Below are positions 13,746 to 50,048 of a stretch of DNA of 64,000 nucleotides, one piece after another. A program made the position numbers and the translations under genes. This DNA is from Balanoglossus misakiensis (taxonomy: Eukaryota > Animalia > Hemichordata): contig CM082576.2 in assembly GCA_040954595.2 (NCBI GenBank), forward strand, positions 16,353,028-16,417,027, written 5' to 3'. Within the stretch, counting starts at the first letter, position 1. The number at the start of each line of letters is the position of its first letter. The notes below the pieces were generated by a model. That model searched no databases. It saw nothing but the letters and a program-made list of their open reading frames with translations, and was not told the DNA's origin.

Positions 13746-13776
<31 letters not shown>

Positions 13777-24412: not shown

Positions 24413-25832
24413 CTGCGTTTCCGGTATATTCTCCAAGAGTCAGTTTATATTTACTGAATTCATCACCAATGACGAATCTATCATATTTTGCGTATCTGGT
24501 TTCGTTGTCAAAGTCTTCCATGTCGATTCTGAGTTCGTAAGTCCGTTGATTTGTCAATCGATGCAACTTATCATTTCCCAGCCAGAACTCGGCAGCAGGA
24601 AACCCGAATCCATTTTTGTAGTCATTCCAGTAGCGGTATAGAAATCTAAGCTACCATCGAGTCTCCTTTGAAATACCTTATAATTAAAAGAATGAACGCG
24701 AAAACCATCAACGCCAGACTGAGACCAATTAAGGTGTGTACCTTCCACAGGAATTACTTTGAATCGGACACCAAGAAATCGGAAGTAGCTGAATTGCAAA
24801 AATATAAAAAATACCAGAAGTGATCGGCTTTCATCCGGTGAGAAAACAATTGTATCAGGCAATCTATCATAATCGTGTATTCCAGAACTATAGTTTTACA
24901 CGTTTGCAATACAGATTAAATTAACAGTTTTCTCTCGAAGCAGCGCTTTTATTTTTAAGAAAATACTAGCCCTGCTTCGCTAAGTATTCTAATAGACACA
25001 TACCGTCCACCCCCCGTTATCTGTCTCCATATCACAATAGACCTTGAATGGGGTTCCGTCGTCCACGGGTTGCACAGTGTACACGCCACTTGGGGTTTCT
25101 TTGTCCCGCCGATAAATATCATAGCAATCCAACCGTGGCCGACGCTCTAAAATACACGCATAATCTTTGAATCATTATTGACGCTTTTATAATCGATCAA
25201 ATCCAGAACGTGTACGTCTAAGATAAGAGGAGTCTGATGATTCTAAAAAATTATTAATGAAATTTGATGTGGCATATTGCGAAAGTACATGTAGAGCTCC
25301 ATATAACACATGAATAAGTGCTGGCATATTATTTGCTAAGCGTACTGTATATTAGTTCTATGGGTCAAAACTGACGTCATTGTGTACATCGGTACACAAC
25401 GGTATGCGAAGCACTATTTTCTGAACAGCGATAAATTTTCGATATTATTGTGCATCTTTATCTCCCAAACCTATAAGATTATTTTAACAATTATTTGAGC
25501 TTATGATTAAAAATAATGTACAGCCATGATGCAATGGCGCTTACATAAAGTAGCTTCATGGTACCACAGTTATTAGATTGAGCGGCACAATACAAGGAGA
25601 TAGCAACAACGTCTTTTCATGCTAACTGTAACATCAGAATCGCGCCATCTCAATGGATATATAGGCACTCCGACACACAACCTCGGTCCGAAAGGCCCGT
25701 ATCATTATCAGTGTGCAGAAATTAATACTTGCCTTGTTTGTGATCGGTTTCCACATGTTCGTCTGTAAGTAACACATTAGCAGGTAATACCAGTAACAGT
25801 ATGAATGTCACCCATACACACGTAAACTCCAT
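24413..25832 (-). pseudogene. Fibrinogen-related domain (FReD/ficolin-like) gene, frameshifted and apparently lacking its last exon
   Basis: Signal-like exon (MEFTCVWVTFILLLVLPA, ATG 25832). Exon ~25004-25146 reads DCYDIY...SGVYTVQP...VYCDMETDNGGWT. Exon ~24413-24677 reads VFQRRLDGSLDFY/YWNDYKNGFG...EFWLGND...GNAG, with a 2-nt insertion near 24636. No FSTxDxDND/GGWW exon was found. Confidence 0.8.
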
Positions 25833-30093: not shown

Positions 30094-30628
30094 TCTCAAT
30101 CTGATTAAAATCAGATGTAGGGAACGGAGACGCGTTTTTTTACAGCCCGGAAACTGTGATGTCGTGAAGACAAAAAAGAATGACAGAGAAATCAACAGAT
30201 CATATTTTGCTCAAAGGCAGAGACTGTACTCACCGAGGCTGTACTTACTGAAAACATGCCAGGCGCCGATGTTGTCCACTTGAGATAATGTTCACAATTT
30301 TGTTCGGAAGTCTTCTTCCAGTTTCCATGTGTCGCACATGTTTTCATTACATACAACATTATGTACACATAGCCGTTCTGTCATTCTTTTATGTTTCCAA
30401 AGGACCCACATTTAGCTCCCGTGGTTACCCACACGAATTGTTCCGTATGTCTGCCCTTCTGTACATGCCTATTTCTGTGTCATCGATATTCAAAGAACGG
30501 CTTATCACATTTGAACCCAATTTGATGGACATGTAATGATTCAAAATGGCGAGGCTTACCAGTGTTGTGATAAGCCATTGGATGATTTACAAAACGGTCG
30601 CCCCAAAAACAAACTACAGGACAATTTG

Positions 30629-30910
30629 GAGACTCCTCGAAGCCGAGCGGCTCTGGGGTTTCTTTACTGTGCCGGGCATTTCACAGTAAAACTTCACTGA
30701 GAACCGATACACCGACGTATAACCCTGAACAAGGAGTACAGAGATTAGTGTCAAGATGAAACAGACTTTCCTCGACCTGCCCCGTTGCCAGAGCAAGGAG
30801 TACTGAGTTCTGCGTCAACAGTGCACATAACCTTTTCCTCAACCTGCCCACATGGCTACATCAGTGCACAAAAAACAGCTACCCACGCGGCCATGGCTTG
30901 GAGAAGTCTT
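30629..30910 (-). ncRNA. Unassigned structured RNA, variant C (282 nt, single copy)
   Basis: Shares the conserved ends (GCCAUGGCCGCGUGGGUAGCUG ... CAGUGAAGUUUUACUGUGAAAUGCCCGGCACAGUAAAGAAACCCCAGAGCCGCU) and covarying stems with variants A and B. Confidence 0.7.
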
Positions 30911-31594
30911 TGATGTCAGTTCTTTAGCCCGGAAACATGAAGACAAAAAAGAATGACAGAAGTTTGGCGCAAAAGCAGAAGAAAAACAAGATTGTACTCA
31001 CCGGGAACACCCCAGGCGAGGGGACTTACCTGAAATGTTCCATCTCTGTTTGCGCTGTCCACGTATATACAACGTTGATCCCGTAGACAATATCGTTTTC
31101 TCAATATCTCGAGTGTTTCCGTAGCACCGACGTCATATACGACTGGGTTTCTCAATCTCTTTTACATTCCAACTGTCATCATCCAAATATCATGTCTCCT
31201 GTCTTCTGGTTCGACGTTTAGGTTAATTTTCTTAATTTCGAACCTGTGATGCACACCTTCCTACTATTTACAACAAAAGTTTGATATGTCTATAAATCTT
31301 AGAATAGTGGTTTGTTTACTTTGTTTCTCGCTTGACAAAAGTGTTTCCTTACGAATGCTGAGCCCCATTCGGTAAGCCGATGCAATTTTACAAATTATCG
31401 TTGGGAGTTGCTCGACTTCTTTGGTAAAATGAATGATACTGCTATAATACAATATAATATGCTAGCTTAATAGATTTGTGCATATGGTTTTCAAAGTTGA
31501 TGTGAAAAATATGGTTCTAATTGTTGGCAAAAGTAACCTTATCTGTCGTTAGTCTAATATTTTAGAGAAAGAAACAACGAAAACATTTTTTACG

Positions 31595-31836
31595 GAGCCC
31601 TGTAAGCGGTTCTGGGGTCTCTTTAACGTGCCGGGCATTTCACAGTAAAACTTCACTATGTATTCATAGACCAGCGGAGGGGTGGGTACAAGATTTGACC
31701 CTGAACAAGGTCTACAAACGGCGATGGGTCGGCTCGTTCTCTCCCCTTTCACTCAACCACCTGACCCCTGCCTCGACCTGTTCACTACTGGTGTAATTTC
31801 CACAGCTACCCACGTGACCATAGCGTACAAGGGCTC
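31595..31836 (-). ncRNA. Structured RNA variant A, copy 1 (242 nt)
   Basis: GAGCCCUUGUA...UACAGGGCUC closing stem. This copy has one mismatch in the conserved hairpin (tttaacgtg on + strand). Confidence 0.65.
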
Positions 31837-32474
31837 ATAGACATGGTCTATTTTACCCGGAAATGGCTAGCTAGCTGCAAGAATTTGTCAAGACAGTGAC
31901 AGATAAGATTACTTTCCTATAGCATTGTTCTGTTGGAAATTATCACTTTCCTCAATTATAGTATACTACCCAAATAATAAAAAATATATTCTCTGCGAAT
32001 TATGGTGTGTTTTTAGTGACTGTATGTAAAGTAAGTTCAAATGTTGATCCTTCCAAAGGAGGACAATGCTCAGAAAAGTTAGTCCTTTCAAATTTCCCCT
32101 TCAGAATTTATCACCGTCACATTCGACCTTCAAGCCACGTTCTGGACACACAGACCCATACTCGCGTAAACAAAACCATTTGGGTCTTACCATCAGGCAG
32201 CGCTCTTAAAATAATGCTATTTATGTCCTAGAATCTTACTATCTTACTGAGATTAACACGGTAACGACCTGAACATCAGTGTCGTTTACCTCATACATTC
32301 ATGGTTGTTAAAAGTGTCCCATATGAGTGTTCAGTCCCCGTTCGTTTTGTAAGCCTGTTGTTTTTAGGGTATGTGAAAAACACTGCCGTTTTTTTTTCAT
32401 TATTAGCAAAAGTTACCTTATCTGTCGTTAGTCTCATTTTTTAGAGAAAGAAACAACGAAAAAAGTTTTTTACG

Positions 32475-32716
32475 GAGCCCTGTAAGCGGTTCTGGGGTCT
32501 CTTTACCGTGCCGGGCATTTCACAGTAAAACTTCACTATGTATTCATACACCAGCGGAGGGGTGGGTACAAGATTTGACCCTGAACAAGGTCTACAAACG
32601 GCGATGGGTCGGCTCGTTCTCTCCCCTTTCACTCAACCACCTGACCCCTGCCTCGACCTGTTCACTACTGGTGTAATTTCCACAGCTACCCACGTGACCA
32701 TAGCGTACAAGGGCTC
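32475..32716 (-). ncRNA. Structured RNA variant A, copy 2
   Basis: Same 242-nt element, 880 bp from copy 1. Confidence 0.7.
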
Positions 32717-33355
32717 ATAGACATGGTCTATTTTACCCGGAAATGGCTAGCTAGCTGCAAGAATTTGTCAAGACAGTGACAGATAAGATTACTTTCCTAT
32801 AGCATTGTTCTGTTGGAAATTATCACTTTCCTCAATTATAGTATACTACCCAAATAATAAAAAATATATTCTCTGCGAATTATGGTGTGTTTTTAGTGAC
32901 TGTATGTAAAGTAAGTTCAAATGTTAATCCTTCCAAAGGAGGACAATGCTCAGAAAAGTTAGTCCTTTCAAATTTCCCCTTCAGAATTTATCACCGTCAC
33001 ATTCGACCTTCAAGCCACGTTCTGGACACACAGACCCATACTCGCGTAAACAAAACCATTTGGGTCTTACCATCAGGCAGCGCTCTTAAAATAATGCTAT
33101 TTATGTCCTAGAATCTTACTATCTTACTGAGATTAACACGGTAACGACCTGAACATCAGTGTCGTTTACCTCAAACATTCATGGTTGTTAAAAGTGTCCC
33201 ATATGAGTGTTCAGTCCCCGTTCGTTTTGTAAGCCTGTCGTTTTTAGGGTATGTGAAAAACACTGCCGTTTTTTTTTTCATTATTAGCAAAAGTTACCTT
33301 ATCTGTCGTTAGTCTCATTTTTTAGAGAAAGAAACAACGAAAACAGTTTTTTACG

Positions 33356-33597
33356 GAGCCCTGTAAGCGGTTCTAGGGTCTCTTTACCGTGCCGGGCATT
33401 TCACAGTAAAACTTCACTATGTATTCATACACCAGCGGAGGGGTGGGTACAAGATTTGACCCTGAACAAGGTCTACAAACGGCGATGGGTCGGCTCGCTC
33501 TCTCCCCTTTCACTCAACCACCTGACCCCTGCCTCGACCTGTTCACTACTGGTGTAATTTCCACAGCTACCCACGTGACCATAGCGTACAAGGGCTC
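33356..33597 (-). ncRNA. Structured RNA variant A, copy 3
   Basis: Same element with two substitutions. Confidence 0.7.
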
Positions 33598-34236
33598 ATA
33601 GACATGGTCTATTTTACCCGGAAATGGCTAGCTAGCTGCACGAATTTGTCAAGACAATGACAGATAAGATTACTTTCCTATAGCATTGTTCTGTTGGAAA
33701 TTATCACTTTCCTCAATTATAGTATACTACCCAAATAATAAAAAAATATATTCTCTGCGAATTATGGTGTGTTTTTAGTGACTGTATGTAAAGTAAGTTC
33801 AAATCTTAATCCTTCCAAAGGAAGATAATGCTCAGAAAAGTTAGTCCTTTCAAATTTCCCCTTCAGAATTTATCACCGTCACATTCGACCTTCAAGCCAC
33901 GTTCTGGACACACAGACCCATACTCGCGTAAACAAAACCATTTGGGTCTTACCATCAGGCAGCGCTCTTAAAATAATGCTATTTATGTCCTAGAATCTTA
34001 CTATCTTACTGAGATTAACACGGTAACGACCTGAACATCAGTGTCGTTTACCTCAAACATTCATGGTTGTTAAAAGTATCCCATATGAGTGTTCAGTCCC
34101 CGTTCGTTTTGTAAGCCTGTTGTTTTTAGGGTATGTGAAAAACACTGCCGTTTTTTTTTCATTATTAGCAAAAGTTACCTTATCTGTCGTTAGTCTCATT
34201 TTTTAGAGAAAGAAACAACGAAAACAGTTTTTTACG

Positions 34237-34478
34237 GAGCCCTGTAAGCGGTTCTGGGGTCTCTTTACCGTGCCGGGCATTTCACAGTAAAACTTCACTA
34301 TGTATTCATACACCAGCGGAGGGGTGGGTACAAGATTTGACCCTGAACAAGGTCTACAAACGGCGATGGGTCGGCTCGTTCTCTCCCCTTTCACTCAACC
34401 ACCTGACCCCTGCCTCGACCTGTTCACTACTGGTGTAATTTCCACAGCTACCCACGTGACCATAGCGTACAAGGGCTC
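34237..34478 (-). ncRNA. Structured RNA variant A, copy 4
   Basis: Same element; its flank leads into the variant B block. Confidence 0.7.
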
Positions 34479-34883
34479 ATAGACATGGTCTATTTTACCC
34501 GGAAATGGCTAGCCAGCTGCAAGAATTTGTCAAGACAATGACAGATAAGATTACCTTGTACCATTCCCGTGGCATTTTTCGTTAGGGAAATTGTCAACTT
34601 CATCAGCTATGTGTTACCCCCCTCAACTCCCCCCCCCCCCCCCAAAAAAAAAAAAAAAAAAATTCTAAGGAAATTTGTGTGTGTTAGTGACTGTGTGTGA
34701 AGTCTACCGTTCACGGTAACATAGAAAATTATTTTGCCAAACTTAGAATAGAAAATATATGTTGGAGTTTATTATTTACATTTATTCACATATGCAGCTC
34801 AATTCAAAACACGGTTTAAAAGGACATAAAGTTGTATGCCGGTGCCGAATCACATTGTTTTTTAAAATGTAGCAAATTTTGTT

Positions 34884-35093
34884 GAGTCTTCCAAGCGGTT
34901 CTGGGGTCTCTTTACCGTGCCGGGCGTTTCACAGTAAAACTTCACCGTGTACTCCTACGCCAGCGTTTTTTAGTGGAGACAAGGAATGACGGGATGGCCG
35001 AACCACCAACATCAGTTCTACTTGTTCAACACCAGTGTACTTCCCCCGGCGTACTTTCCACGGCTACCCACGTGACCATAGCTTGGCGGTCTC
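34884..35093 (-). ncRNA. Structured RNA variant B, copy 1 (210 nt)
   Basis: Conserved ends, CCAAGC/GCUUGG closing stem, and compensatory CCGUG/CACGG and UACGCCGG/CUGGCGUA stems. Confidence 0.7.
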
Positions 35094-35479
35094 TTTGATG
35101 CAACCTCTTAAAGCCCAGAAATATATACTGTTTTCATTCAGAAGACTAACGACAGACACCGCTGAATATTAAAATCACTGTCTATTGAAATGAGCTGTAT
35201 ATATGATACCAATGGGCCTAATCTTTACGATAGTTACGCATCATACCCTTGCCTTGAGTAGGATGTTGTATGTGTAACGCTCTTTAGGAAAATAATAATC
35301 ACAGTCGCGTGAGAGTTTGTTACACGTCGAACTGTTCCTATTCTTCTGAGTCATAGGGGCAATTCGCCGTGTAATAAAATGCTCTTTAAATACGACTTTA
35401 TTTACCCGAAATACCAAAGTTTATGCAACAATCACTCCCACTTTTGATCCACGTGTGACCCCCTAGATAGGTTAGAATT

Positions 35480-36545
35480 ATCCTGCGCTACAATCTCTGT
35501 ACGGCAGCGCGTTTGACGTGAGCAGGGCCAGGGGGAACGAACGCGCTACTTGACAACATGTCATTCCATTCGTGCGACGCGCACGCAGCCGTGCGCACGA
35601 TGCATGCAATGTGATGTTTGGCCGAAGCACAGCGACTGCGGCCGAAGCTTGTGTATCGCTGTTTGTATAAAGTTTACTGGCATACAGTACCTCTTCTACG
35701 ACTTTTTTTGTAAAATTAGAATTCATTGGTTATTTTGCATAGTTTTTAACCAATGGCCAAGACGATTACGGCCTGTATTAAATCGCTAACTTTTCCCGAG
35801 TTGCTTAGCATCGCACTGTATGCATCACACGACAAATATTACAGAAAACAAAAGTCTCTCACGACTCTTACCCGAGGGAGGCGCTCTTCATATTTTATGT
35901 CCAGTAGTTCCAGTGAACACTGCCAAAACAAGTGCGTGAAGAGCGGGTTCTCAACCAGCCACTTTACAACAAAGAAAATGAAACGAAAGCAGAGAGTGTA
36001 GAGCCGCTGCTTGTGCTTTGTGATCGTGAGGAGTCGTCTATGGCAACAGTGACACAAATAGAACATCAGAACACTTCCTGTTTTCTTGCGACAAAAGCAT
36101 GATGGGAATTTCATCGCGAGAACTTTCGCGCGTCCGTGAGCGGGTAACTTAGCAACAAGTATGGCGAACATTCCTTTCTTTACGGCGTGGTGGCGACAGC
36201 CTTTAGGCGCGGCTTTCCGCGGACCCGAATTTTCCTTTCATTTGGCGAAGGAGGAATCTTTGCCTGTACAGATTATTCTAAACCTTTAAATCTTGTGAAC
36301 AAGGGGTAAAACATTCCAATGATAAAATGTACTTATTTTTAGTTGGAGTTTTTGACCTAAAATTTGCGTATAAAGTTTCCTTTTAGACTTGCTCTCGTCG
36401 TCGCCTCGTAGCATTGTCTGTGCGACAGTGCTGTAAAAAAACAACAGTTAGACATGAATCTTACCGAGAGGCGGCGCTTTTCGGATGGCAATGTTAAGTA
36501 CTTGAAGTGTGGTAGAACTACCAAATGATGAAAACAGGATTTCAG
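35480..36545. promoter_or_regulatory. CpG-rich promoter-like block, duplicated at ~44730-45767 and ~50440-51507; the last copy continues to ~52400
   Basis: Elevated CpG with ETS-like (acttcctg, acttccgg at 52055), RFX X-box-like (gtaacttagcaac; gttgccgacagcaac), TCTCGCGA-like and YY1-like (aagtatggcg) motifs. Confidence 0.45.
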
Positions 36546-36689
36546 ATTTGACCCTGAACAAGGTCTACAAACGGCGATGGGTCGGCTCGTTCTCTCCCCT
36601 TTCACTCAACCACCTGACCCCTGCCTCGACCTGTTCACTACTGGTGTAATTTCCACAGCTACCCACGTGACCATAGCGTACAAGGGCTC
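36544..36689 (-). pseudogene. Truncated variant A copy (RNA 3' half lost) at a duplication junction
   Basis: Junction caggatttcag|atttgaccctg fuses the promoter-like block to the middle of A. Confidence 0.8.
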
Positions 36690-37325
36690 ATAGACATGGT
36701 CTATTTTACCCGGAAATGGCTAGCTAGCTGCACGAATTTGTCAAGACAATGACAGATAAGATTACTTTCCTATAGCATTGTTCTGTTGGAAATTATCACT
36801 TTCCTCAATTATAGTATACTACCCAAATAATAAAAAATATATTATCTGCGAATTATGGTGTGTTTTTAGTAACTGTATGTAAAGTAAGTTCAAATGTTAA
36901 TCCTTCCAAAGGAGGATAATGCTCAGAAAAGTTAGTCCTTTCATATTTCCCCTTCAGAATTTATCACCGTCACATTCGACCTTCAAGCCACGTTCTGGAC
37001 ACACAGACCCATGCTCGCGTAAACAAAACCATTTGGGTCTTACCATCAGGCAGCGCTCTTAAAAAATGCTATTTATGTCCTAGAATCCTTCTATCTTACT
37101 GAGATTAACACGGTAACGACCTGAACATCAGTGTCGTTTACCTCATACATTCATGGTTGTTACAAGTATCCCATATGAGTGTTCAGTCCCCGTTCATTTT
37201 GTAAGCCTGTTGTTTTTAGGGTATGTGAAAAACACTGCCGTTTTTTTTCATTATTAGCAAAAGTTACCTTATCTGTCGTTAGTCTCATTTTTTAGAGAAA
37301 GAAACAACGAAAACAGTTTTTTACG

Positions 37326-37567
37326 GAGCCCTGTAAGCGGTTCTGGGGTCTCTTTACCGTGCCGGGCATTTCACAGTAAAACTTCACTATGTATTCATAC
37401 ACCAGCGGAGGGGTGGGTACAAGATTTGACCCTGAACAAGGTCTACAAACGGCGATGGGTCGGCTCGTTCTCTCCCCTTTCACTCAACCACCTGAACCCT
37501 GCCTCGACCTGTTCACTACTGGTGTAATTTCCACAGCTACCCACGTGACCATAGCGTACAAGGGCTC
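37326..37567 (-). ncRNA. Structured RNA variant A
   Basis: Full 242-nt copy. Confidence 0.7.
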
Positions 37568-38503
37568 ATAGACATGGTCTATTTTACCCGAAAATGGCTA
37601 GCTAGCTGCACGAATTTGTCAAGACAATGACAGATAAGATTACTTTCCTATAGCATTGTTCTGTTGGAAATTATCACTTTCCTCAATTATAGTATACTAC
37701 CCAAATAATAAAAAATATATTCTCTGCGAATTATTGTGTGTTTTTAGTGACTGTATGTAAAGTAAGTTCAAATCTTAATCCTTCCAAAGGAAGATAATGC
37801 TCAGAAAAGTTAGTCATTTCATATTTCCCCTTCAGAATTTATCACCGTCACATTCGACCTTCAAGCCACGTTCTGGACACACAGACCCATACTCGCGTAA
37901 ACAAAACCATTTGGGTCTAACCATCAGGCAGCGCTCTTAAAATAATGCTATTTATGTCCTAGAATCTTACTATCTTACTGAGATTAACACGGTAACGACC
38001 TGAACATCAGTGTCGTTTACCTATATACATTCATGGTTGTTAAAAGTGTCCCATATGAGTGTTCAGTCCCCGTTCGTTTTGTAAGCCTGTTGTTTTTAGG
38101 GTATGTGAAAAACACTGCCGTTTTTTTTCATTATTAGCAAAAGTTACCTTATCTGTCGTTAGTCTCATTTTTTAGAGAAAGAAACAACGAAAACAGTTTT
38201 TTACGGAGCCCTGTAAGCGGTTCTGGGGTCTCTTTATCTGAATTGTCAGAATGACTACAAAGTAACACAGGCATGGGAGGGCGCTCTGCATCTGTCATCC
38301 ACGGAAACAGGGTTTGAACGCTCCGTGAGTTTTTTGACAAATTTTGTCATCGTACTGTTAAACTTGTTTACTGCGAAGTGTTCGGAGTGCAGTTTAACTA
38401 CCTATGTAGCAGAAGTAACCTTTATTGTGTTACTATCTGGTCATTTTTGGACGTTTGAAGGAGTTTTCAGTTTTCTCGTTACAACAAAGGAACCCCACCC
38501 AGT

Positions 38504-39790
38504 ATGGCGGCCGGCGCGGCGGGAGTCCGAAGCTACGCACAAGTCACCATGCCGTATGCAGACTCAGAAACTGCTGAGGACCACAAGTCCGTTCTATTTC
38601 TAAAACAATCAGATGTTGTTAGACCAGAGACCAAACAATGGTTAAAAGGTGAGGAGATCCTTGCTAGTATTGCTGAAGTAGTGCCAATTGAGAACATTGA
38701 CGGCTTGCAGCGGATTCGTGGTCTCTGGAGAATTTACCCAAGGGACAATGCCGATAAGCTAATACTGAAGCAACATGGTTTGTCTTTACGTGGAAAAGCA
38801 ATAGAACTTTGGGATAAGAATCCATTCAGGCGTGAGTTGCAAGAAGTTGGTGTCAAGATCATTGTGAAAGATTTGCCGTTGTCGTTAGATGACAGCGTCA
38901 TCGGGAGCTCTTTGTCTGCGATAGGCCTGAAAACTAAATCTAGGCTTTTGCGGCAGAGATGGCGGGTGAACGGCAAACTCACCAATATTTGCAATGGGGA
39001 CCGCATGGTTTTCGTTGAAAAACCATCCAAAGATCTACCGAAATTTATTAAAGTCGGACCGTTTTCTGCAAGGCTTTTCAGTAGCTTGCAGAACAGAAAC
39101 TCTGAGCAAGAAACAAAGTGTAACAAGTGCTTGCAACTTGGACATTTTAGCTACCAGTGCACAAATCCTTTGAAATGCAGACTTTGTTTCGGCAATGGGC
39201 ACCTTGCAAAGGAATGTGTTAATGCCAAGTGTGAAAAGCAGGCCGAACAGGAGGTGGAAAGTGGTGTATGCGCGTTGATTACTCCTGCGACGGAGGCAGT
39301 AATTATCACATCGACGCCACAACAAAGCACCACACCTACAAGTGACGCAGGCATTCCAACGCCTTTATCTACATCTGCTGCAGAGCAGGCTTCGTCAGCT
39401 CATTGTGAGAGCCAACAGACGAGGGAGGCTACTACGAAGTGTGGATCGAACATAGGCAGTACTAGTCATGACACAGTGTGCAACGACCCATCATCCTCAT
39501 CGAGACAACGAGCCTCGCAGCGGTCGATATCATCTTACTTTCCTGAGAAAAGGCGCGATCCAAGAATACAGAAACCGAAAGATTGTGACCAAGACGATTC
39601 CGTCGCTGCCGTCGCTGACACATCAGCGAATATCAGCGAGAGCGAGTCTGAACAGTACGTGGACTGTGACACAACAAAAGAGGAAATGTCCGATCTTTCA
39701 CCGGAATCACCCGTGATTTTAACGCCGGCTTCCGGGACGACCACGGACAATAGAAAGAGACGCAAGAGGAAGAGGAAACTAAAGAAATGA
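38504..39790 (+). CDS. Retrotransposon ORF1p (Gag-like, two CCHC zinc knuckles, basic C-terminus)
   Basis: 428-aa ORF with CNKCLQLGHFSYQC and CRLCFGNGHLAKEC, ending RKRRKRKRKLKK. The stop overlaps the ORF2 start (ATGA). Confidence 0.92.
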   Translation: MAAGAAGVRSYAQVTMPYADSETAEDHKSVLFLKQSDVVRPETKQWLKGEEILASIAEVVPIENIDGLQRIRGLWRIYPRDNADKLILKQHGLSLRGKAIELWDKNPFRRELQEVGVKIIVKDLPLSLDDSVIGSSLSAIGLKTKSRLLRQRWRVNGKLTNICNGDRMVFVEKPSKDLPKFIKVGPFSARLFSSLQNRNSEQETKCNKCLQLGHFSYQCTNPLKCRLCFGNGHLAKECVNAKCEKQAEQEVESGVCALITPATEAVIITSTPQQSTTPTSDAGIPTPLSTSAAEQASSAHCESQQTREATTKCGSNIGSTSHDTVCNDPSSSSRQRASQRSISSYFPEKRRDPRIQKPKDCDQDDSVAAVADTSANISESESEQYVDCDTTKEEMSDLSPESPVILTPASGTTTDNRKRRKRKRKLKK

Positions 39791-42700
39791 GTAACAAATT
39801 ACATATTGTAACTTTAAATGTAAGAGGTCTAGGTAATTACTCTAAACGTAGAGATATCTTGCAATGGCTTAAACACCAGAAGGCGTCTTTTGCCGTTTTA
39901 CAGGAAGTTTACGGTGAAAATATAAATATTGTTCAATGGGAAAAAGAATGGGGAGGTCGGATAATTATGTCGGAAGGAGCCAAAAATAGTAGAGGCGTCG
40001 CAATCTTTATTGCTAAACATTGTAATTTTCATATTGACAGTGTGTACAAAGATGACTCTGGTAGAATTGTTATTGTTAACGGTATGTACGAGAACATGGG
40101 TTTTTCAGTCAGTGGTGTCTATGCACCGAATGATGCTGTACAGAGAAATCGCTTTTTTGTCAACTTTATGAACATCATTGAGGTTAATTGTAAGTATGAA
40201 CGCCTTATAATAGCCGGTGACTTTAATTGTTCACTTAATAAGAGGCTGGATAAGAGATCTCGTACGGTATCTGTGGATAAATCCGTCCCGACCTTACGTA
40301 AAATGCTGCAGCAGTTCTCCCTGGTTGACATTTGGAGAGAACGCAACCCGTCACTGCAACAGTTTACATGGAGACGCCTGCATCCCAGCCCGACCTATAG
40401 TAGAATTGACTATATTTTTGTATCTAAGAGCATTCTAAAAAACACAAAAAGAGTTGACATCAGACCTGCATTGAAAACAGACCACATGGCTGTTTATTTA
40501 GAAATTATGTATAGGAAGTCTGACAGGGGTCCTGGCACCTGGAAATTTAACAAGCACCTCCTTAAAAAGGAGGATTACGTTATAAGTGTCCGTAATCTCC
40601 TGACACGGTGTAAAATTAAGTATGTGAATGTAGAAGCCAATGTTAGATGGGATTTGATAAAGAAAGATGTGAAGGAGTACACGATTGAGTATTGTCATAA
40701 TGTAACGAAGAATTCTAACACCCTCATTCATGAGTTGGAGAAGCATTTGCGTACTGCTGAACAAAACATGCTCCATGAGCCGTCTGATTCCAACATTGAG
40801 GCTTATGGTTTAATTAAACAGCGTTTGGAAGATCTTTTCACCCTCCGTGCCGAAGGTGCGCAGATACGCTCCAAGGCACGCTGGGTCGAAAAGGGTGAAA
40901 AAAGTACAAAGTTCTTTTTGGGTTTAGAGAAGACAAATGCCTCCAAAAAGGAGATGAATGTTCTCCGTACAGCGCAGGGTACCTATGTAACTGATACGGA
41001 GCACATTCTTGAGGAACAGAAGAACTTCTATCAAAATCTGTATAAAGATAAGCCGAGAGATAGTTGCCTTGACGATTTTCTAGGAGATGCAGCTGTTTCA
41101 CAGCTATCCCAGAATCAATCAGACATTTGTGAGGGTGAGCTCACAGAAAGAGAATGCTTTAAAGCACTGTGTATGATTGCTCCCAACAAATCTCCTGGAT
41201 GCGACGGGTTAACTGGTGAATTTTATCGTTTTTTCTGGAATGATATTTGCGATTATGTATTGTCATCTTTAAATAGTAGTTACAGGTGTGGTTCGCTCTC
41301 TTTATCTCAGAGACGGAGTTTACTTACACTCCTGTTTAAGAAAGGCTCCGAGGACGATTTAAACAACTGGCGTCCAGTGTCTCTTCTAAATACCGATTAT
41401 AAAATTGCTACTAAAGCCTTAGCTAATCGGTTACAGATCGTTCTTCCGTCATTGATCCATAGAGATCAAACCGGGTATATGAAGGGGCGTTTTATAGGTG
41501 AAAATGTTAGACTTATCTCTGACATCTTTCATTACTCAAAGAAGCACAATGTTGGGGGAGTTGCCATGTTCCTTGATTATGAAAAAGCCTTCGATAGCGT
41601 TAACTGGGACTATCTAGATGAAACTTTACGACGTATGAATTTTGGTCATTCCTTTCGTCAATGGGTAAAAACTTTCTACACGAACATTCAGAGCTGTATT
41701 TTATACAAGGGTTGGTCTTCAAGTTACTTCAGGTTAGAAAGGGGTGTCCGTCAGGGATGTCCCCTCTCTGCACTTTTATTTGTAATAGCAATTGAGTTTT
41801 TAGCTTGTAAGATCAGGCACGATAAAACTATCAAAGGGTTTCGTCTGCCTGCTGGTAATGGTCATGCCAAAGAAGCAAAGATATCTTTACTTGCAGATGA
41901 TACAACAGTATTCGTTGCAGATTTGTCTTCTGTTGTGTCTGTTCTCAAAGTAATGGAGAAGTTTCAAGGATGCAGTGGGCTAAGGTTAAATAAAAAGAAA
42001 ACGCAGGCTTTTAAACTTGGTAATTTAAGAAAATGTAACGATAAAGTGGGTGATATAAGTTGGACTGACAATCCTGTAAAAACTCTTGGAGTATATTTTG
42101 GGTATGATGATGCTCTGTGTAAGCAGTTAAACTGGGATGATAAGTTAAAATCATTAGGTAAAGTTTTGGAAATGTGGGGAAGACGGCAACTCACGATTTA
42201 TGGCCGTGTTCTCATTACCAAGTCTCTTGCTGTTTCAAAAATTATGTATTTATCATCAGTAATTGGTATTCCCAATGATATTCTCTGTAAAGTACAACGT
42301 CTCGTTGACAGTTTTGTAAAACGTAAAAGGAGAATTTCGAACAAAACTCTTGAAAGTGGCTACAAGCTAGGAGGAGTTAATCATATTAATGTGAAATGCC
42401 AAGTGGAAGCAATGATGGCTCTTTGGGTTAAAAGAATAATAATGTGTAAAGACGAGACATGGGCTGTCTTGCCCTGGTCATATTTGCTTTTAGATAATAC
42501 CACAAATTTATTGCATCAACACTCAATTTGGCAAAGGGTTCCTGATTTTCTTTTATCTGTACTCCCAGAATTTTATGTAAATGTACTGAATGCCTGGTAT
42601 GCGGTGAAACACAATGCTTCCCGTGCAGGGAACCGTACCCTTGTCTGGTCCTCCAAATTCAGGTGTTTTTATGCAGCTCACTCTGAAAGTGATGACTATG

Positions 42701-43356
42701 ATGTCACACTTGGCGTTTCTAAATCTCCGGTCCACAAATTAACTTGTAAGGTGTTGTATACTCATCTCATTCAGAGGCACTCAGTACAGGCTAGCGATAA
42801 ACTCTCAAAATGGTTTTCTAAGTTAAATATCACCCCTGTAAAGCCAGAGAGCGACTGTTACAAAATCTGGCTGAGTGTGTACAAGTTGACTAAAGAGACC
42901 AAGTTAAGAGAGTTTCAGTGGAAACTTCTACAACGCTTATTACCATGTAACAAGTATTTATACTTGTGGAAGTTAAATGAGTCAATGTTCTGTCCTCTTT
43001 GTCACCAGATTGACTCTCTGGAACACAGATTTATTTATTGTCAAATAGCTGTGAGATGCTGGAAAAAGCTGAAATACGTCATCTCTAAATGTTTTGAGTG
43101 TAGAGAAATAACACCATCAGACATTATTTTTACAAAAGTTGGCGAGAATGTCAAACCCAAAGAAAAACGTTATGTTTTTCAGCTTTTAATTCTTCTTGGG
43201 AAATGGAGCATCCATAAGTACTGGGTGACTAATGAAAACACACCGATTGAAGTTTTAATCAAAAATGAGTTTATGTTAAGGTATAAGATTGAAAAACAAC
43301 TGGATGCGAAAGCTGTTGTGCTAGAAACTTTTCAGAAAATTACGAGTTTACTGTAA
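39787..43356 (+). CDS. Retrotransposon ORF2p (APE endonuclease, reverse transcriptase, C-terminal Cys/His zinc motif)
   Basis: 1189 aa uninterrupted. Endonuclease motifs: TLNVRG, LQE, YAPN, GDFN, SRIDY, TDH. RT motifs: KSPGCDG, WRPVSLLN, RQGCPLS, LADD. C-terminal CPLC...EHRFIYC. Confidence 0.97.
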   Translation: MSNKLHIVTLNVRGLGNYSKRRDILQWLKHQKASFAVLQEVYGENINIVQWEKEWGGRIIMSEGAKNSRGVAIFIAKHCNFHIDSVYKDDSGRIVIVNGMYENMGFSVSGVYAPNDAVQRNRFFVNFMNIIEVNCKYERLIIAGDFNCSLNKRLDKRSRTVSVDKSVPTLRKMLQQFSLVDIWRERNPSLQQFTWRRLHPSPTYSRIDYIFVSKSILKNTKRVDIRPALKTDHMAVYLEIMYRKSDRGPGTWKFNKHLLKKEDYVISVRNLLTRCKIKYVNVEANVRWDLIKKDVKEYTIEYCHNVTKNSNTLIHELEKHLRTAEQNMLHEPSDSNIEAYGLIKQRLEDLFTLRAEGAQIRSKARWVEKGEKSTKFFLGLEKTNASKKEMNVLRTAQGTYVTDTEHILEEQKNFYQNLYKDKPRDSCLDDFLGDAAVSQLSQNQSDICEGELTERECFKALCMIAPNKSPGCDGLTGEFYRFFWNDICDYVLSSLNSSYRCGSLSLSQRRSLLTLLFKKGSEDDLNNWRPVSLLNTDYKIATKALANRLQIVLPSLIHRDQTGYMKGRFIGENVRLISDIFHYSKKHNVGGVAMFLDYEKAFDSVNWDYLDETLRRMNFGHSFRQWVKTFYTNIQSCILYKGWSSSYFRLERGVRQGCPLSALLFVIAIEFLACKIRHDKTIKGFRLPAGNGHAKEAKISLLADDTTVFVADLSSVVSVLKVMEKFQGCSGLRLNKKKTQAFKLGNLRKCNDKVGDISWTDNPVKTLGVYFGYDDALCKQLNWDDKLKSLGKVLEMWGRRQLTIYGRVLITKSLAVSKIMYLSSVIGIPNDILCKVQRLVDSFVKRKRRISNKTLESGYKLGGVNHINVKCQVEAMMALWVKRIIMCKDETWAVLPWSYLLLDNTTNLLHQHSIWQRVPDFLLSVLPEFYVNVLNAWYAVKHNASRAGNRTLVWSSKFRCFYAAHSESDDYDVTLGVSKSPVHKLTCKVLYTHLIQRHSVQASDKLSKWFSKLNITPVKPESDCYKIWLSVYKLTKETKLREFQWKLLQRLLPCNKYLYLWKLNESMFCPLCHQIDSLEHRFIYCQIAVRCWKKLKYVISKCFECREITPSDIIFTKVGENVKPKEKRYVFQLLILLGKWSIHKYWVTNENTPIEVLIKNEFMLRYKIEKQLDAKAVVLETFQKITSLL

Positions 43357-43480
43357 TTTTTAACCTCTTCAGGCCAGTGCAACAATACTGTCTTTTCTAT
43401 ATTTATATAAACATGTAATTGAGGTGAAGGTTTAAATAAAAGATAAAAAAAAAAAAAAACAACGAAAACAGTTTTTTACG

Positions 43481-43722
43481 GAGCCCTGTAAGCGGTTCTG
43501 GGGTCTCTTTACCGTGCCGGGCATTTCACAGTAAAACTTCACTATGTATTCATACACCAGCGGAGGGGTGGGTACAAGATTTGACCCTGAACAAGGTCTA
43601 CAAACGGCGATGGGTCGGCTCGTTCTCTCCCCTTTCACTCAACCACCTGAACCCTGCCTCGACCTGTTCACTACTGGTGTAATTTCCACAGCTACCCACG
43701 TGACCATAGCGTACAAGGGCTC
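43481..43722 (-). ncRNA. Structured RNA variant A, the copy at the Tx1 insertion (intact)
   Basis: Full copy; its 3' 31 nt are also duplicated at 38206-38236 as part of the TSD. Confidence 0.7.
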
Positions 43723-44128
43723 ATAGACATGGTCTATTTTACCCGGAAATGGCTAGCCAGCTGCAAGAATTTGTCAAGACAATGACAGATAAGATTACCT
43801 TGTACCATTCCCGTGGCATTTTTCGTTAGGGAAATTGTCAACTTCATCAGCTATGTGTTACCCCCCTCAACTCCCCCCCCCCCCCAAAAAAAAAAAAAAA
43901 AAAAAAAATCTAAGGAAATTTGTGTGTGTTAGTGACTGTGTGTGAAGTCTACCGTTCACGGTAACATAGAAAATTATTTTGCCAAACTTAGAATAGAAAA
44001 TATATGTTGGAGTTTATTATTTACATTTATTCACATATGCAGCTCAATTCAAAACACGGTTTAAAAGGACATAAAGTTGTATGCCGGTGCCGAATCACAT
44101 TGTTTTTTAAAATGTAGCAAATTTTGTT

Positions 44129-44338
44129 GAGTCTTCCAAGCGGTTCTGGGGTCTCTTTACCGTGCCGGGCGTTTCACAGTAAAACTTCACCGTGTACTCC
44201 TACGCCAGCGTTTTTTAGTGGAGACAAGGAATGACGGGATGGCCGAACCACCAACATCAGTTCTACTTGTTCAACACCAGTGTACTTCCCCCGGCGTACT
44301 TTCCACGGCTACCCACGTGACCATAGCTTGGCGGTCTC
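44129..44338 (-). ncRNA. Structured RNA variant B, copy 2
   Basis: Matches 34884-35093. Confidence 0.7.
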
Positions 44339-45765
44339 TTTGATGCAACCTCTTAAAGCCCAGAAATATATACTGTTTTCATTCAGAAGACTAACGACAG
44401 ACACCGCTGAATATTAAAATCACTGTCTATTGAAATGAGCTGTATATATGATACCAATGGGCCTAATCTTTACGATAGTTACGCATCATACCCTTGCCTT
44501 GAGTAGGATGTTGTATGTGTAACGCTCTTTAGGAAAATAATAATCACAGTCGCGTGAGAGTTTGTTACACGTCGAACTGTTCCTATTCTTCTGAGTCATA
44601 GGGGCAATTCGCCGTGTAATAAAATGCTCTTTAAATACGACTTTATTTACCCGAAATACCAAAGTTTATGCAACAATCACTCCCACTTTTGATCCACGTG
44701 TGACCCCCTAGATAGGTTAGAATTATCCTGCGCTACAATCTCTGTACGGCAGCGCGTTTGACGTGAGCAGGGCCAGGGGGAACGAACGCGCTACTTGACA
44801 ACATGTCATTCCATTCGTGCGACGCGCACGCAGCCGTGCGCACGATGCATGCAATGTGATGTTTGGCCGAAGCACAGCGACTGCGGCCGAAGCTTGTGTA
44901 TCGCTGTTTGTATAAAGTTTACTGGCATACAGTACCTCTTCTACGACTTTTTTTGTAAAATTAGAATTCATTGGTTATTTTGCATAATTTTTAACCAATG
45001 GCGTACATGGCCAAGACGAGTTGCTTAGCATCGCACTGTATGCATCACACGACAAATATTACAGAAAACAAAAGTCTCTCACGACTCTTACCCGAGAGAG
45101 GCGCTCTTCATATTTTATGTCCAGTAGTTCCAGTGAACACTGCCAAAACAAGTGCGTGAAGAGCGGGTTCTCAACCAGCCACTTTACAACAAAGAAAATG
45201 AAACGAAAGCAGAGAGTGTAGAGCCGCTGCTTGTGCTTTGTGATCGTGAGGAGTCGTCTATGGCAACAGTGACACAAATAGAACATCAGAACACTTCCTG
45301 TTTTCTTGCGACAAAAGCATGATGGGAATTTCATCGCGAGAACTTTCGCGCGTCCGTGAGCGGGTAACTTAGCAACAAGTATGGCGAACATTCCTTTCTT
45401 TACGGCGTGGTGGCGACAGCCTTTAGGCGCGGCTTTCCGCGGACCCGAATTTTCCTTTCATTTGGCGAAGGAGGAATCTTTGCCTGTACAGATTATTCTA
45501 AACCTTTAAATCTTGTGAACAAGGGGTAAAACATTCCAATGATAAAATGTACTTATTTTTAGTTGGAGTTTTTGACCTAAAATTTGCGTATAAAGTTTCC
45601 TTTTAGACTTGCTCTCGTCGTCGCCTCGTAGCATTGTCTGTGCGACAGTGCTGTAAAAAAAAACAACAGTTAGACATGAATCTTACCGAGAGGCGGCGCT
45701 TTTCGGATGGCAATGTTAAGTACTTGAAGTGTGGTAGAACTACCAAATGATGAAAACAGGATTTC

Positions 45766-45911
45766 AGATTTGACCCTGAACAAGGTCTACAAACGGCGAT
45801 GGGTCGGCTCGTTCTCTCCCCTTTCACTCAACCACCTGACCCCTGCCTCGACCTGTTCACTACTGGTGTAATTTCCACAGCTACCCACGTGACCATAGCG
45901 TACAAGGGCTC
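45766..45911 (-). pseudogene. Truncated variant A copy at the second duplication junction
   Basis: Same junction sequence as at 36544. Confidence 0.8.
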
Positions 45912-46551
45912 ATAGACATGGTCTATTTTACCCGGAAATGGCTAGCTAGCTGCACGAATTTGTCAAGACAATGACAGATAAGATTACTTTCCTATAGCAT
46001 TGTTCTGTTGGAAATTATCACTTTCCTCAATTATAGTATACTACCCAAATAATAAAAAATATATTATCTGCGAATTATGGTGTGTTTTTAGTAACTGTAT
46101 GTAAAGTAAGTTCAAATGTTAATCCTTCCAAAGGAGGATAATGCTCAGAAAAGTTAGTCCTTTCATATTTCCCCTTCAGAATTTATCACCGTCACATTCG
46201 ACCTTCAAGCCACGTTCTGGACACACAGACCCATGCTCGCGTAAACAAAACCATTTGGGTCTTACCATCAGGCAGCGCTCTTAAAAAAATGCTATTTATG
46301 TCCTAGAATCTTACTATCTTACTGAGATTAACACGGTAACGACCTGAACATCAGTGTCGTTTACCTCATACATTCATGGTTGTTAAAAGTGTCCCATATG
46401 AGTGTTCAGTCCCCGTTCGTTTTGTAAGCCTGTTGTTTTTAGGGTATGTGAAAAACACTGCCGTTTTTTTTTTTCATTATTAGCAAAAGTTACCTTATCT
46501 GTCGTTAGTCTCATTTTTTAGAGAAAGAAACAACGAAAACAGTTTTTTACG

Positions 46552-46793
46552 GAGCCCTGTAAGCGGTTCTGGGGTCTCTTTACCGTGCCGGGCATTTCAC
46601 AGTAAAACTTCACTATGTATTCATACACCAGCGGAGGGGTGGGTACAAGATTTGACCCTGAACAAGGTCTACAAACGGCGATGGGTCGGCTCGTTCTCTG
46701 CCCTTTCACTCAACCACCTGAACCCTGCCTCGACCTGTTCACTACTGGTGTAATTTCCACAGCTACCCACGTGACCATAGCGTACAAGGGCTC
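46552..46793 (-). ncRNA. Structured RNA variant A
   Basis: Full 242-nt copy. Confidence 0.7.
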
Positions 46794-47431
46794 ATAGACA
46801 TGGTCTATTTTACCCGAAAATGGCTAGCTAGCTGCACGAATTTGTCAAGACAATGACAGATAAGATTACTTTCCTATAGCATTGTTCTGTTGGAAATTAT
46901 CACTTTCCTCAATTATAGTATACTACCCAAATAATAAAAAATATATTATCTGCGAATTATGGTGTGTTTTTAGTAACTGTATGTAAAGTAAGTTCAAATG
47001 TTAATCCTTCCAAAGGAGGATAATGCTCAGAAAAGTTAGTCCTTTCATATTTCCCCTTCAGAATTTATCACCGTCACATTCGACCTTCAAGCCACGTTCT
47101 GGACACACAGACCCATGCTCGCGTAAACAAAACCATTTGGGTCTTACCATCAGGCAGCGCTCTTAAAAAATGCTATTTATGTCCTAGAATCTTACTATCT
47201 TACTGAGATTAACACGGTAACGACCTGAACATCAGTGTCGTTTACCTCATACATTCATGGTTGTTAAAAGTGTCCCATATGAGTGTTCAGTCCCCGTTCG
47301 TTTTGTAAGCCTGTTGTTTTTAGGGTATGTGAAAAACACTGCCGTTTTTTTTTTCATTATTAGCAAAAGTTACCTTATCTGTCGTTAGTCTCATTTTTTA
47401 GAGAAAGAAACAACGAAAACAGTTTTTTACG

Positions 47432-47673
47432 GAGCCCTGTAAGCGGTTCTGGGGTCTCTTTACCGTGCCGGGCATTTCACAGTAAAACTTCACTATGTAT
47501 TCATACACCAGCGGAGGGGTGGGTACAAGATTTGACCCTGAACAAGGTCTACAAACGGCGATGGGTCGGCTCGTTCTCTCCCCTTTCACTCAACCACCTG
47601 AACCCTGCCTCGACCTGTTCACTACTGGTGTAATTTCCACAGCTACCCACGTGACCATAGCGTACAAGGGCTC
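47432..47673 (-). ncRNA. Structured RNA variant A
   Basis: Full 242-nt copy. Confidence 0.7.
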
Positions 47674-48312
47674 ATAGACATGGTCTATTTTACCCGAAAA
47701 TGGCTAGCTAGCTGCACGAATTTGTCAAGACAATGACAGATAAGATTACTTTCCTATAGCATTGTTCTGTTTGAAATTATCACTTTCCTCAATTATAGTA
47801 TACTACCCAAATAATAAAAAATATATTCTCTGCGAATTATTGTGTGTTTTTAGTGACTGTATGTAAAGTAAGTTCAAATCTTAATCCTTCCAAAGGAAGA
47901 TAATGCTCAGAAAAGTTAGTCATTTCATATTTCCCCTTCAGAATTTATCACCGTCACATTCGACCTTCAAGCCACGTTCTGGACACACAGACCCATACTC
48001 GCGTAAACAAAACCATTTGGGTCTAACCATCAGGCAGCGCTCTTAAAATAATGCTATTTATGTCCTAGAATCTTACTATCTTACTGAGATTAACACGGTA
48101 ACGACCTGAACATCAGTGTCGTTTACCTATATACATTCATGGTTGTTAAAAGTGTCCCATACGAGTGTTCAGTCCCCGTTCGTTTTGTAAGCCTGTTGTT
48201 TTTAGGGTATGTGAAAAACACTGCCGTTTTTTTTTCATTATTAGCAAAAGTTACCTTATCTGTCGTTAGTCTCATTTTTTAGAGAAAGAAACAACGAAAA
48301 CAGTTTTTTACG

Positions 48313-48554
48313 GAGCCCTGTAAGCGGTTCTGGGGTCTCTTTACCGTGCCGGGCATTTCACAGTAAAACTTCACTATGTATTCATACACCAGCGGAGGGG
48401 TGGGTACAAGATTTGACCCTGAACAAGGTCTACAAACGGCGATGGGTCGGCTCGTTCTCTCCCCTTTCACTCAACCACCTGAACCCTGCCTCGACCTGTT
48501 CACTACTGGTGTAATTTCCACAGCTACCCACGTGACCATAGCGTACAAGGGCTC
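48313..48554 (-). ncRNA. Structured RNA variant A
   Basis: Full 242-nt copy. Confidence 0.7.
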
Positions 48555-49193
48555 ATAGACATGGTCTATTTTACCCGAAAATGGCTAGCTAGCTGCACGA
48601 ATTTGTCAAGACAATGACAGATAAGATTACTTTCCTATAGCATTGTTCTGTTGGAAATTATCACTTTCCTCAATTATAGTATACTACCCAAATAATAAAA
48701 AATATATTCTCTGCGAATTATTGTGTGTTTTTAGTGACTGTATGTAAAGTAAGTTCAAATCTTAATCCTTCCAAAGGAAGATAATGCTCAGAAAAGTTAG
48801 TCATTTCATATTTCCCCTTCAGAATTTATCACCGTCACATTCGACCTTCAAGCCACGTTCTGGACACACAGACCCATACTCGCGTAAACAAAACCATTTG
48901 GGTCTAACCATCAGGCAGCGCTCTTAAAATAATGCTATTTATGTCCTAGAATCTTACTATCTTACTGAGATTAACACGGTAACGACCTGAACATCAGTGT
49001 CGTTTACCTATATACATTCATGGTTGTTAAAAGTGTCCCATATGAGTGTTCAGTCCCCGTTCGTTTTGTAAGCCTGTTGTTTTTAGGGTATGTGAAAAAC
49101 ACTGCCGTTTTTTTTTCATTATTAGCAAAAGTTACCTTATCTGTCGTTAGTCTCATTTTTTAGAGAAAGAAACAACGAAAACAGTTTTTTACG

Positions 49194-49435
49194 GAGCCCT
49201 GTAAGCGGTTCTGGGGTCTCTTTACCGTGCCGGGCATTTCACAGTAAAACTTCACTATGTATTCATACACCAGCGGAGGGGTGAGTACAAGATTTGACCC
49301 TAAACAAGGTCTACAAACGGCGATGGGTCGGCTCGTTCTCTCCCCTTTCACTCAACCACCTGACCCCTGCCTCGACCTGTTCACTACTGGTGTAATTTCC
49401 ACAGCTACCCACGTGACCATAGCGTACAAGGGCTC
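49194..49435 (-). ncRNA. Structured RNA variant A
   Basis: Full copy with two substitutions in the variable arm. Confidence 0.7.
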
Positions 49436-49838
49436 ATAGACATGGTCTATTTTACCCGGAAATGGCTAGCCAGCTGCAAGAATTTGTCAAGACAATGACA
49501 GATAAGATTACCTTGTACCATTCCCGTGGCATTTTTCGTTAGGGAAATTGTCAACTTCATCAGCTATGTGTTACCCCCCTCAACTCCCCCCCCCCCAAAA
49601 AAAAAAAAAAAAAAAAATTCTAAGGAAATTTGTGTGTGTTAGTGACTGTGTGTGAAGTCTACCGTTCACGGTAACATAGAAAATTATTTTGCCAAACTTA
49701 GAATAGAAAATATATGTTGGAGTTTATTATTTACATTTATTCACATATGCAGCTCAATTCAAAACACGGTTTAAAAGGACATAAAGTTGTATGCCGGTGC
49801 CGAATCACATTGTTTTTTAAAATGTAGCAAATTTTGTT

Positions 49839-50048
49839 GAGTCTTCCAAGCGGTTCTGGGGTCTCTTTACCGTGCCGGGCGTTTCACAGTAAAACTTCAC
49901 CGTGTACTCCTACGCCAGCGTTTTTTAGTGGAGACAAGGAATGACGGGATGGCCGAACCACCAACATCAGTTCTACTTGTTCAACACCAGTGTACTTCCC
50001 CCGGCGTACTTTCCACGGCTACCCACGTGACCATAGCTTGGCGGTCTC
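49839..50048 (-). ncRNA. Structured RNA variant B, copy 3
   Basis: Matches 34884-35093. Confidence 0.7.

Follow-up and report, generated by a model that had tools for sequence, protein, structure and literature searches.

A clustered family of predicted structured RNAs with three diverged variants in the acorn worm Balanoglossus misakiensis

A stretch of 64,000 nucleotides from the hemichordate Balanoglossus misakiensis (assembly GCA_040954595.2, contig CM082576.2, positions 16,353,028 to 16,417,027 of the forward strand; hereafter the window) was found to carry a cluster of repeats that are likely to be genes for a new animal non-coding RNA. All 14 full copies lie on the minus strand and belong to three variants: ten copies of A (242 nt), three of B (210 nt, including an extra GAG/CUC stem) and one of C (280 nt). 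The copies and the predicted fold they share are real features of the window, and the repeats very probably represent a structured RNA under selection. For the work of such an RNA, we tentatively favor a stable protein-binding scaffold or decoy acting in the manner of adenovirus VA RNA, a reading that falls only a little short of probable, because a long covarying stem closes the 5′ and 3′ ends and because the topology matches that of VA and vault-type RNAs.

The number of copies was confirmed in three ways. The pattern of the hairpin called P3 matched 14 times in the window, on the minus strand only, against an expectation of 0 from 100 shuffles. Profile and covariance-model searches of the window each returned the identical 14 full copies plus a 3′ fragment at 38185-38236, which was duplicated through insertion of a long interspersed nuclear element (LINE), and nothing further above noise; the profile search also gave two A copies that are truncated at the 3′ end. 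A preliminary description of this DNA had counted the same 14 full copies. The lengths it gave for B and A were right as well, and for C 280 nt replaces its 282. The cores, truncated copies and one coreless remnant are as follows.

49839..50048, minus strand: variant B core, copy 1 (210 nt)
49194..49435, minus strand: variant A core
48313..48554, minus strand: variant A core
47432..47673, minus strand: variant A core
46552..46793, minus strand: variant A core
45766..45911, minus strand: 3′-truncated A copy, cut at a segmental-duplication junction and lacking P3 and the 3′ strands
44129..44338, minus strand: variant B core, copy 2
43481..43722, minus strand: variant A core, with the LINE inserted just 3′ of the core
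37326..37567, minus strand: variant A core
36544..36689, minus strand: 3′-truncated A copy
34884..35093, minus strand: variant B core, copy 3 (fold representative)
34237..34478, minus strand: variant A core, the 242-nt representative, with its P3 hairpin at 34264-34291
33356..33597, minus strand: variant A core
32475..32716, minus strand: variant A core
31595..31836, minus strand: variant A core, last in the array, with one P3 pair broken
30630..30909, minus strand: variant C core, 280 nt, single copy, with a T6 run at core position 35 and an internally repeated CAGGUYGAGG motif
30140..30253, minus strand: remnant D, a paralogue of the region upstream of C, with the leader motif present and the core absent; it stops just short of the duplication junction at 30096

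In the 5′-to-3′ direction of the minus strand, the units follow one another as B A A A A A(truncated), B A [LINE] A A(truncated), B A A A A, C and then remnant D. Copies of A recur in tandem as an 880-bp unit, and the three B-A blocks arose by segmental duplication, at 97–99% identity. The earlier view of an amplified family holds for the number of copies, but only three independent sequences are available because the remaining copies are recent duplications at 97–99% identity. Merged haplotypes may also inflate the copy number. Remnant D shares a 23-nt exact match and the leader motif with the region upstream of C; it is followed by a perfect small hairpin and then by the junction at 30096.

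When folded independently, A, B and C converge on one topology: a terminal stem (P1), a GGY/RCC helix, an internal loop, a GGGU/ACCC helix, and a three-way junction from which the P2 rod and the hairpin P3 extend. In the representative A core these elements are P1, GGU/ACC, the internal loop, GGGU/ACCC, the P2 arm with its rod, and P3; the centroid structure of C leaves the junction stems open. The helices named in the preliminary description were found in both the sequences and the folds, as was the three-way junction with a variable rod that it had proposed. Its assignment of the RNA to the minus strand was borne out too. For A, B and C, minus-strand folds were 12, 14 and 29 kcal/mol more stable than plus-strand folds, and the single-sequence z-scores (200 dinucleotide shuffles) were −2.0, −1.4 and −3.5 on the minus strand against −0.7, +0.5 and −1.1 on the plus strand. 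The minus-strand folds contain 32 G-U pairs, and none of their seven 1×1 mismatches is A-C, which agrees with the claim that most non-Watson-Crick positions are wobble pairs on this strand. The minus-strand consensus structure had an energy of −54.2 compared with a shuffle mean of −27.6 (z −6.9), and none of 150 column shuffles was as low.

Comparison of the three variants also upheld the claim of a covarying fold. Six homologous helices comprise 33 pairs, 22 of them invariant; all 11 variable pairs stay paired among the three paralogues, and five of these change on both sides. For a 34-pair structure, 96% of the 102 cells were paired with five double changes, a result equalled by 5 of 500 shuffles, while slid controls reached only 0–1 double changes. 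Conservation is concentrated in two separate blocks, a 5′ block with 17 of 20 columns identical and a 3′ block with 48 of 53, compared with 31 of 184 columns in the rod and 4 of 12 and 4 of 15 in P1. The unpaired letters of the junction and loops are invariant, including nine of the ten positions of the P3 loop, and P1 and the rod diverge. An invariant unpaired junction and a whole invariant hairpin beside an arm that keeps only its pairing look like a protein-binding or catalytic core.

The pattern of conservation bears directly on whether the repeats are a non-functional unit, derived from a short interspersed element (SINE) or a miniature inverted-repeat transposable element (MITE) or simply a satellite, with a fold inherited from a mobile element. 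Amplification was recent, with spacers 97–99% identical, the recent A copies give no significant purifying signal, and inverted arms flank A and C, all of which such a repeat would explain. It would not readily explain two conserved blocks that pair with each other through compensatory changes around rods sharing only 31 of 184 columns; because the blocks are separate and pair with each other, gene conversion or a satellite is a hard explanation. In addition, the units have no conserved B box, no poly-A tail or duplication was seen beside them, and all copies in the window sit in one cluster on one strand. We therefore regard a non-functional repeat as very improbable.

Several observations nonetheless weigh against a selected, VA-like structured RNA. 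The z-score of variant B (−1.4) is non-significant when taken alone, and the plus-strand consensus also beats 150 of 150 column shuffles, with a weaker z of −4.4. A seventh helix of 3 bp after the rod bulge fails in A, where two of its three pairs are broken, and was excluded from the six-helix count; in the 34-pair structure, 4 of the 102 cells are unpaired. The covariation is drawn from three paralogues in which the helices were picked after the sequences had been viewed, and the shuffle control of the pair-count tool can, by the tool's own caveat, be beaten by related sequences. Among the ten A cores, three of six polymorphisms at paired positions break the pair. The A core has 6 variable sites in 242 positions compared with 21 in 477 for the spacer (p=0.22; from the eight of ten A units that have a full spacer after them), which indicates no significant constraint. 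Finally, a 4-bp stem such as GGGU/ACCC can recur through chance or convergence.

The P2/P2b loop differs among the variants. In B it is GAA/AGUA, the sequence of a sarcin-ricin motif as given in PMC1865062, but in A it is GAA/AAUA, which lies outside the motif sequences given there, and C has lost the GAA/AGUA loop. The rods also have an RCARG-UN-GAR motif in common (for example at 34423, 35025, 30847 and 30780, minus strand), which variant C holds twice. The motif folds in B and C into a helix whose two-nucleotide bulge begins with U; the next helix fails in A. This bulge resembles that of TAR.

The flanks of the variants had been described as largely unrelated. This did not hold: a TTTYYGGGY leader was found at a fixed distance in all 16 copies that retain the 5′ end, and A, B, C and D all have a TCTGTCR(T/C)T motif upstream. 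The conserved leader, the flanking inverted repeats described below and the LINE at the 3′ end of one copy had been missed.

35113..35121, minus strand: B leader motif TTTCTGGGC, a predicted P3-loop partner or promoter element
34497..34505, minus strand: A leader motif TTTCCGGGT, with TTTTCGGGT in 4 of 12 A leaders
30927..30935, minus strand: C leader motif TTTCCGGGC
31529..31916, minus strand: A module with inverted arms 31916-31898 and 31547-31529 (19 contiguous pairs), a possible outer helix of a precursor
30376..30961, minus strand: C module with inverted arms 30961-30947 and 30390-30376 (15 contiguous pairs plus 11 nearby)

The paired hexamer of the leader begins 40, 40 and 39 nt upstream of the 5′ block in A, B and C. 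In all four alleles the leader can form 6–7 bp with the P3 loop hexamer GCCCGG, and all three differences between alleles are C/U opposite G. Of 40000 random 11-mers from the window, 0.45% paired equally well with the P3 loop by Watson-Crick pairs only and 2.7% when G-U was allowed, percentages that are uncorrected for the choice of this segment among several unpaired ones inspected. The fixed distance is also compatible with a promoter element. Whether the leader would form a pseudoknot with the P3 loop or act as a promoter element is about evenly balanced, and if it pairs, the RNA may begin about 25 nt further 5′ than was first placed.

With this leader, the scaffold or decoy that we favor can be pictured as follows. 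The bulged terminal helix, the GGGU/ACCC stem and the junction bearing P3 would form the core, and the P3 loop would dock on the leader about 25 nt 5′ of P1 to close a pseudoknot. The invariant junction, P3 and internal loops would present a surface recognized by protein, while the long wobble-rich rod would serve as an imperfect, paralogue-specific double-stranded arm that engages double-stranded-RNA-binding proteins.

The inverted arms and other flanking signals bring in a different possibility, an RNA processed from a Pol II (RNA polymerase II) host transcript or intron, with the P3 loop as an antisense guide and the inverted arms as a processing stem. Upstream of C and D lie paralogous motifs resembling an acceptor, microexon and donor (TTTCAG...CGGTGAGTAC; 31035-30994 and 30253-30226, minus strand), which may belong to a non-coding host transcript. 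These splice-like motifs, the arms around A (19 pairs) and C (15 pairs) and the P3 loop invariant at nine of ten positions would all suit such a guide. On the other hand, none of the variants contains a consensus C box or Sm site, no shared splice motif was seen by eye near A or B, and shuffle tests of the outer-helix duplex were mixed (3/200 and 174/200 for A, 0/200 and 63/200 for B, 177/200 and 61/200 for C), with a motif-specific null of 0.73, 0.057 and 0.06. A processed guide thus appears highly unlikely. The arms were also considered as terminal repeats of a transposon, an idea that was set aside: they differ among the variants, and no target duplication was seen.

A further motif, GAGCGCTGCCTGATGG, occurs once per 880-bp unit in the A spacers (nine matches, for example at 33967, 33085 and 32205, minus strand), and similar motifs lie upstream of B. 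It resembles a CTCF site.

Signals for RNA polymerase III (Pol III) were present in part. Each of the three variants has at its 5′ end an 11-mer that departs from the A-box consensus TRGYNNANNNG at one position, the A, and a T4–T5 run starts 13–21 nt past P1 in all three (background 0.169 each). The best B-box matches (consensus GWTCRANNC) have one mismatch in A and two in B and C, and lie at non-equivalent places. A T4 run also falls within P3 in all three variants and a T6 run near the 5′ end of C, at position 35. The mismatched A, the lack of a conserved B box and the internal T-runs count against Pol III. Pol III could transcribe A and B while C is decaying, or all three RNAs could be cut from a longer transcript.

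None of the searches assigned the repeats to a known RNA. Covariance models from Rfam 15 gave no match at the gathering threshold in the 64-kb window. At E≤10, the region from 28 to 53 kb gave one chance match, which lay outside the RNA, and B, A and C searched singly gave one chance match each (E 0.55–4.9), in keeping with the earlier failure to recognize a known family. ARAGORN found no tRNA genes in the window. Among signature motifs of known RNAs, the hammerhead box CUGANGA and the telomerase template CUAACC were absent from all three variants with their flanks, and the C box, Sm site, 7SK GAUC and RNase P/MRP CR-I and CR-V from all three variants. Permuted RNase P/MRP, U3, signal recognition particle RNA, Y RNA and 5S RNA were set aside by eye on their characteristic features and had no support from Rfam.

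These results bear on the main rival explanation, that the repeats are ribozymes of a new class that cleave or process themselves. Their active site would then consist of the junction, internal loop and leader-P3 pseudoknot, with the rod as a dispensable insertion, and monomers would be freed from a longer transcript by cleavage. Invariant unpaired nucleotides beside a freely varying arm, a predicted pseudoknot at a fixed distance and the tandem arrangement are all what a ribozyme would predict, and the T-runs in the core favor processing from a longer non-Pol III transcript. Tandem ribozyme repeats are, moreover, said to be known in invertebrates. Yet there was no Rfam match at E≤10 beyond chance, the hammerhead box is absent from every variant, no poly-A tail or target-site duplication of the kind expected of a retrozyme-like element was seen around the units, and the long covarying P1 resembles the terminal stem of a stable RNA. 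A ribozyme is thus unlikely. A shade less likely still is its fullest form, in which a pseudoknotted three-way-junction ribozyme, represented by diverged paralogues in an acorn-worm cluster and excising itself from a longer transcript, would constitute a new class of catalytic RNA.

Another possibility is that the repeats are vault or Y-like RNAs that have diverged strongly, made by Pol III and bound at their bulged terminal helix by a TROVE-domain protein (TEP1 or Ro60). The A-box-like 11-mer with its single mismatch and the T4–T5 run 13–21 nt past P1 in all three variants are consistent with this, as are the conserved bulged terminal helix around a variable center and the clustering of paralogues. 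The trypanosome vault RNA (∼190 nt) was recognized by its bulged terminal helix alone (PMC9326685), and sea urchin vaults contain an RNA (PMC550661). The evidence on the other side includes the absence of any Rfam match per variant at E≤10 except one chance match each, the lack of a B box at a conserved place, the T4 in P3 of all variants and the T6 near the C 5′ end, a length of 210–280 nt compared with the 80–140 nt given in PMC7916137, and the extra P3 arm. We consider this reading improbable.

Relatives were sought in other collections with exact patterns. Viral contigs gave 0, 34 and 3 matches, metagenome contigs 4 and prokaryote genomes 0, and blastn against phages gave no match. All 41 viral and metagenome loci were rejected, the best of them having a model score of 19.9 bits compared with 94–105 for true copies: the 3′ patterns matched seven loci, all lacking the 5′ block and situated in stop-free frames of 242–684 amino acids, and the 34 found with the 5′ pattern show no 3′ motifs within 400 nt. 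No outside homologue was therefore found in the viral, phage, metagenome and prokaryote collections, which hold no animal genomes, so this blank says little. No description of the RNA family was found among the results of literature searches. We take the family to be new and uncatalogued in Rfam and the literature searched, with a small chance that it has already been described in papers on non-vertebrate vault RNAs or in Repbase.

Mid-size structured RNA classes are rarely discovered anew in animals, and hemichordates stand at the base of the deuterostomes. If the RNA is expressed, the three natural variants mark the nucleotides that matter. A cellular VA-like RNA would bear on double-stranded-RNA sensing in invertebrates and on the origin of VA-type folds; a ribozyme would be a new catalytic class; and if it is a diverged vault RNA, searches for vault RNAs beyond the vertebrates would need a different model.

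The LINE at the 3′ end of one A copy has the following parts.

38237..43456, plus strand: full-length retrotransposon without long terminal repeats, with a poly-A end
38182..38236, minus strand: 55-bp target-site duplication carrying the 3′ strands of the RNA; second copy at 43457-43511

With its duplications the element spans 38182-43511; it looks intact, lies in the opposite orientation to the A copy, and is flanked by an unusually long 55-bp duplication. Its first open reading frame (ORF1, 38459-39790) has a zinc knuckle, and ORF2 (39754-43356) has endonuclease, reverse transcriptase and zf-RVT domains. The best relatives of ORF2 are 31–40% identical among the 120 of 262 homologues listed, and no clade names occur among those 120; we infer that the element is L1/Tx1-like. 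Many Tx1 elements prefer set targets, small nuclear RNA genes included (PMC4494074). This LINE may belong to a family that targets the RNA gene, although a single insertion shows no specificity.

The window as a whole is ∼40% G+C and contains microsatellites, spliced genes and the LINE. The neighbors of the RNA cluster are OATP exons, a fibrinogen-domain exon and the LINE, and not an adenovirus genome. Exons of an OATP/SLCO gene occupy 53031-58382 on the minus strand; for one OATP exon the nearest named relatives, two of three matches, come from Ptychodera flava, with 45% protein identity. A duplicate of the gene's last exon and 3′ region, 93–95% identical, lies on the far side of the RNA cluster (28070-28584 and 29588-30096 versus 52415-53421). 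An exon for a fibrinogen C-terminal domain (PF00147, E 4.5e-28) lies at 24228-24650 on the minus strand. Further out are a perfect (ACAT)391 microsatellite of 1.56 kb at 12211-13775 and nested inverted segments of 71–79% identity (6-2657 versus 9016-13825), a pattern suggesting that more than 10 kb around genes at 3100-8400 underwent an old inverted duplication. Two tandem ORFs in that region (6586-7188 and 7560-8381, minus strand) are 88% identical in DNA and encode W-x-G-P...S-C-C-V repeats; Pfam gave no match for the first, and both look like lectins of the tachylectin type.

Compared with known systems, the repeats resemble the tandem ribozymes of animals (hammerhead retrozymes, and the HDV-like, or hepatitis delta virus-like, and twister classes) in their tandem copies, invariant unpaired core, variable arm and predicted pseudoknot, but differ in having no Rfam match, no hammerhead box, and spacers that lie outside any conserved mobile monomer. 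The telomerase RNA of hemichordates, also a structured non-coding RNA from a similar group of hosts, is 436 nt long with template-pseudoknot, CR4/5 and H/ACA domains (PMC8480181), whereas the variants have no template-like CUAACC. With vault RNA and nc886 (PMC10491885, PMC10498592, PMC7916137, PMC9326685) the repeats have in common clustered paralogues, a variable center between conserved ends whose pairing makes a bulged terminal helix, an A-box-like 5′ block, a conserved upstream element and a T-run downstream. Unlike these RNAs, the repeats have no B box, add an invariant hairpin P3 that makes a three-way junction, contain internal T4 and T6 runs, have no Rfam match, and measure 210, 242 and 280 nt rather than the 80–140 nt of vault RNA or the ∼190 nt stated for trypanosomatids (PMC7916137, PMC9326685).

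The closest architecture is that of adenovirus VA RNA I/II, although this would be a likeness of working and not of membership; membership in either the VA or the vault family fails because there is no conserved B box and T-runs fall within the gene. The cluster lies on an invertebrate chromosome, in a window whose ORFs showed no viral genes, and its RNAs would be 210–280 nt long instead of about 160 nt, with no conserved B box, T-runs inside the gene and no Rfam match. In VA RNA the terminal stem contains an A box, a GGGU/ACCC tetrastem stands where three helices meet, the apical stem is rich in wobble pairs and the central domain forms a pseudoknot (PMC6599070, PMC7589676). This pseudoknot is a 3-bp pairing within the central domain, and the one predicted here would join 6–7 bp with the 5′ leader. 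A box B and a U4 terminator are also features of VA RNA, which binds and inhibits PKR or other double-stranded-RNA sensors. The repeats share with VA RNA an A-box-like sequence in the terminal stem, GGGU/ACCC beside a three-way junction (invariant and paired in all three variants), a long wobble-rich arm, a second hairpin with a predicted loop pseudoknot, and paralogues arranged head to tail.

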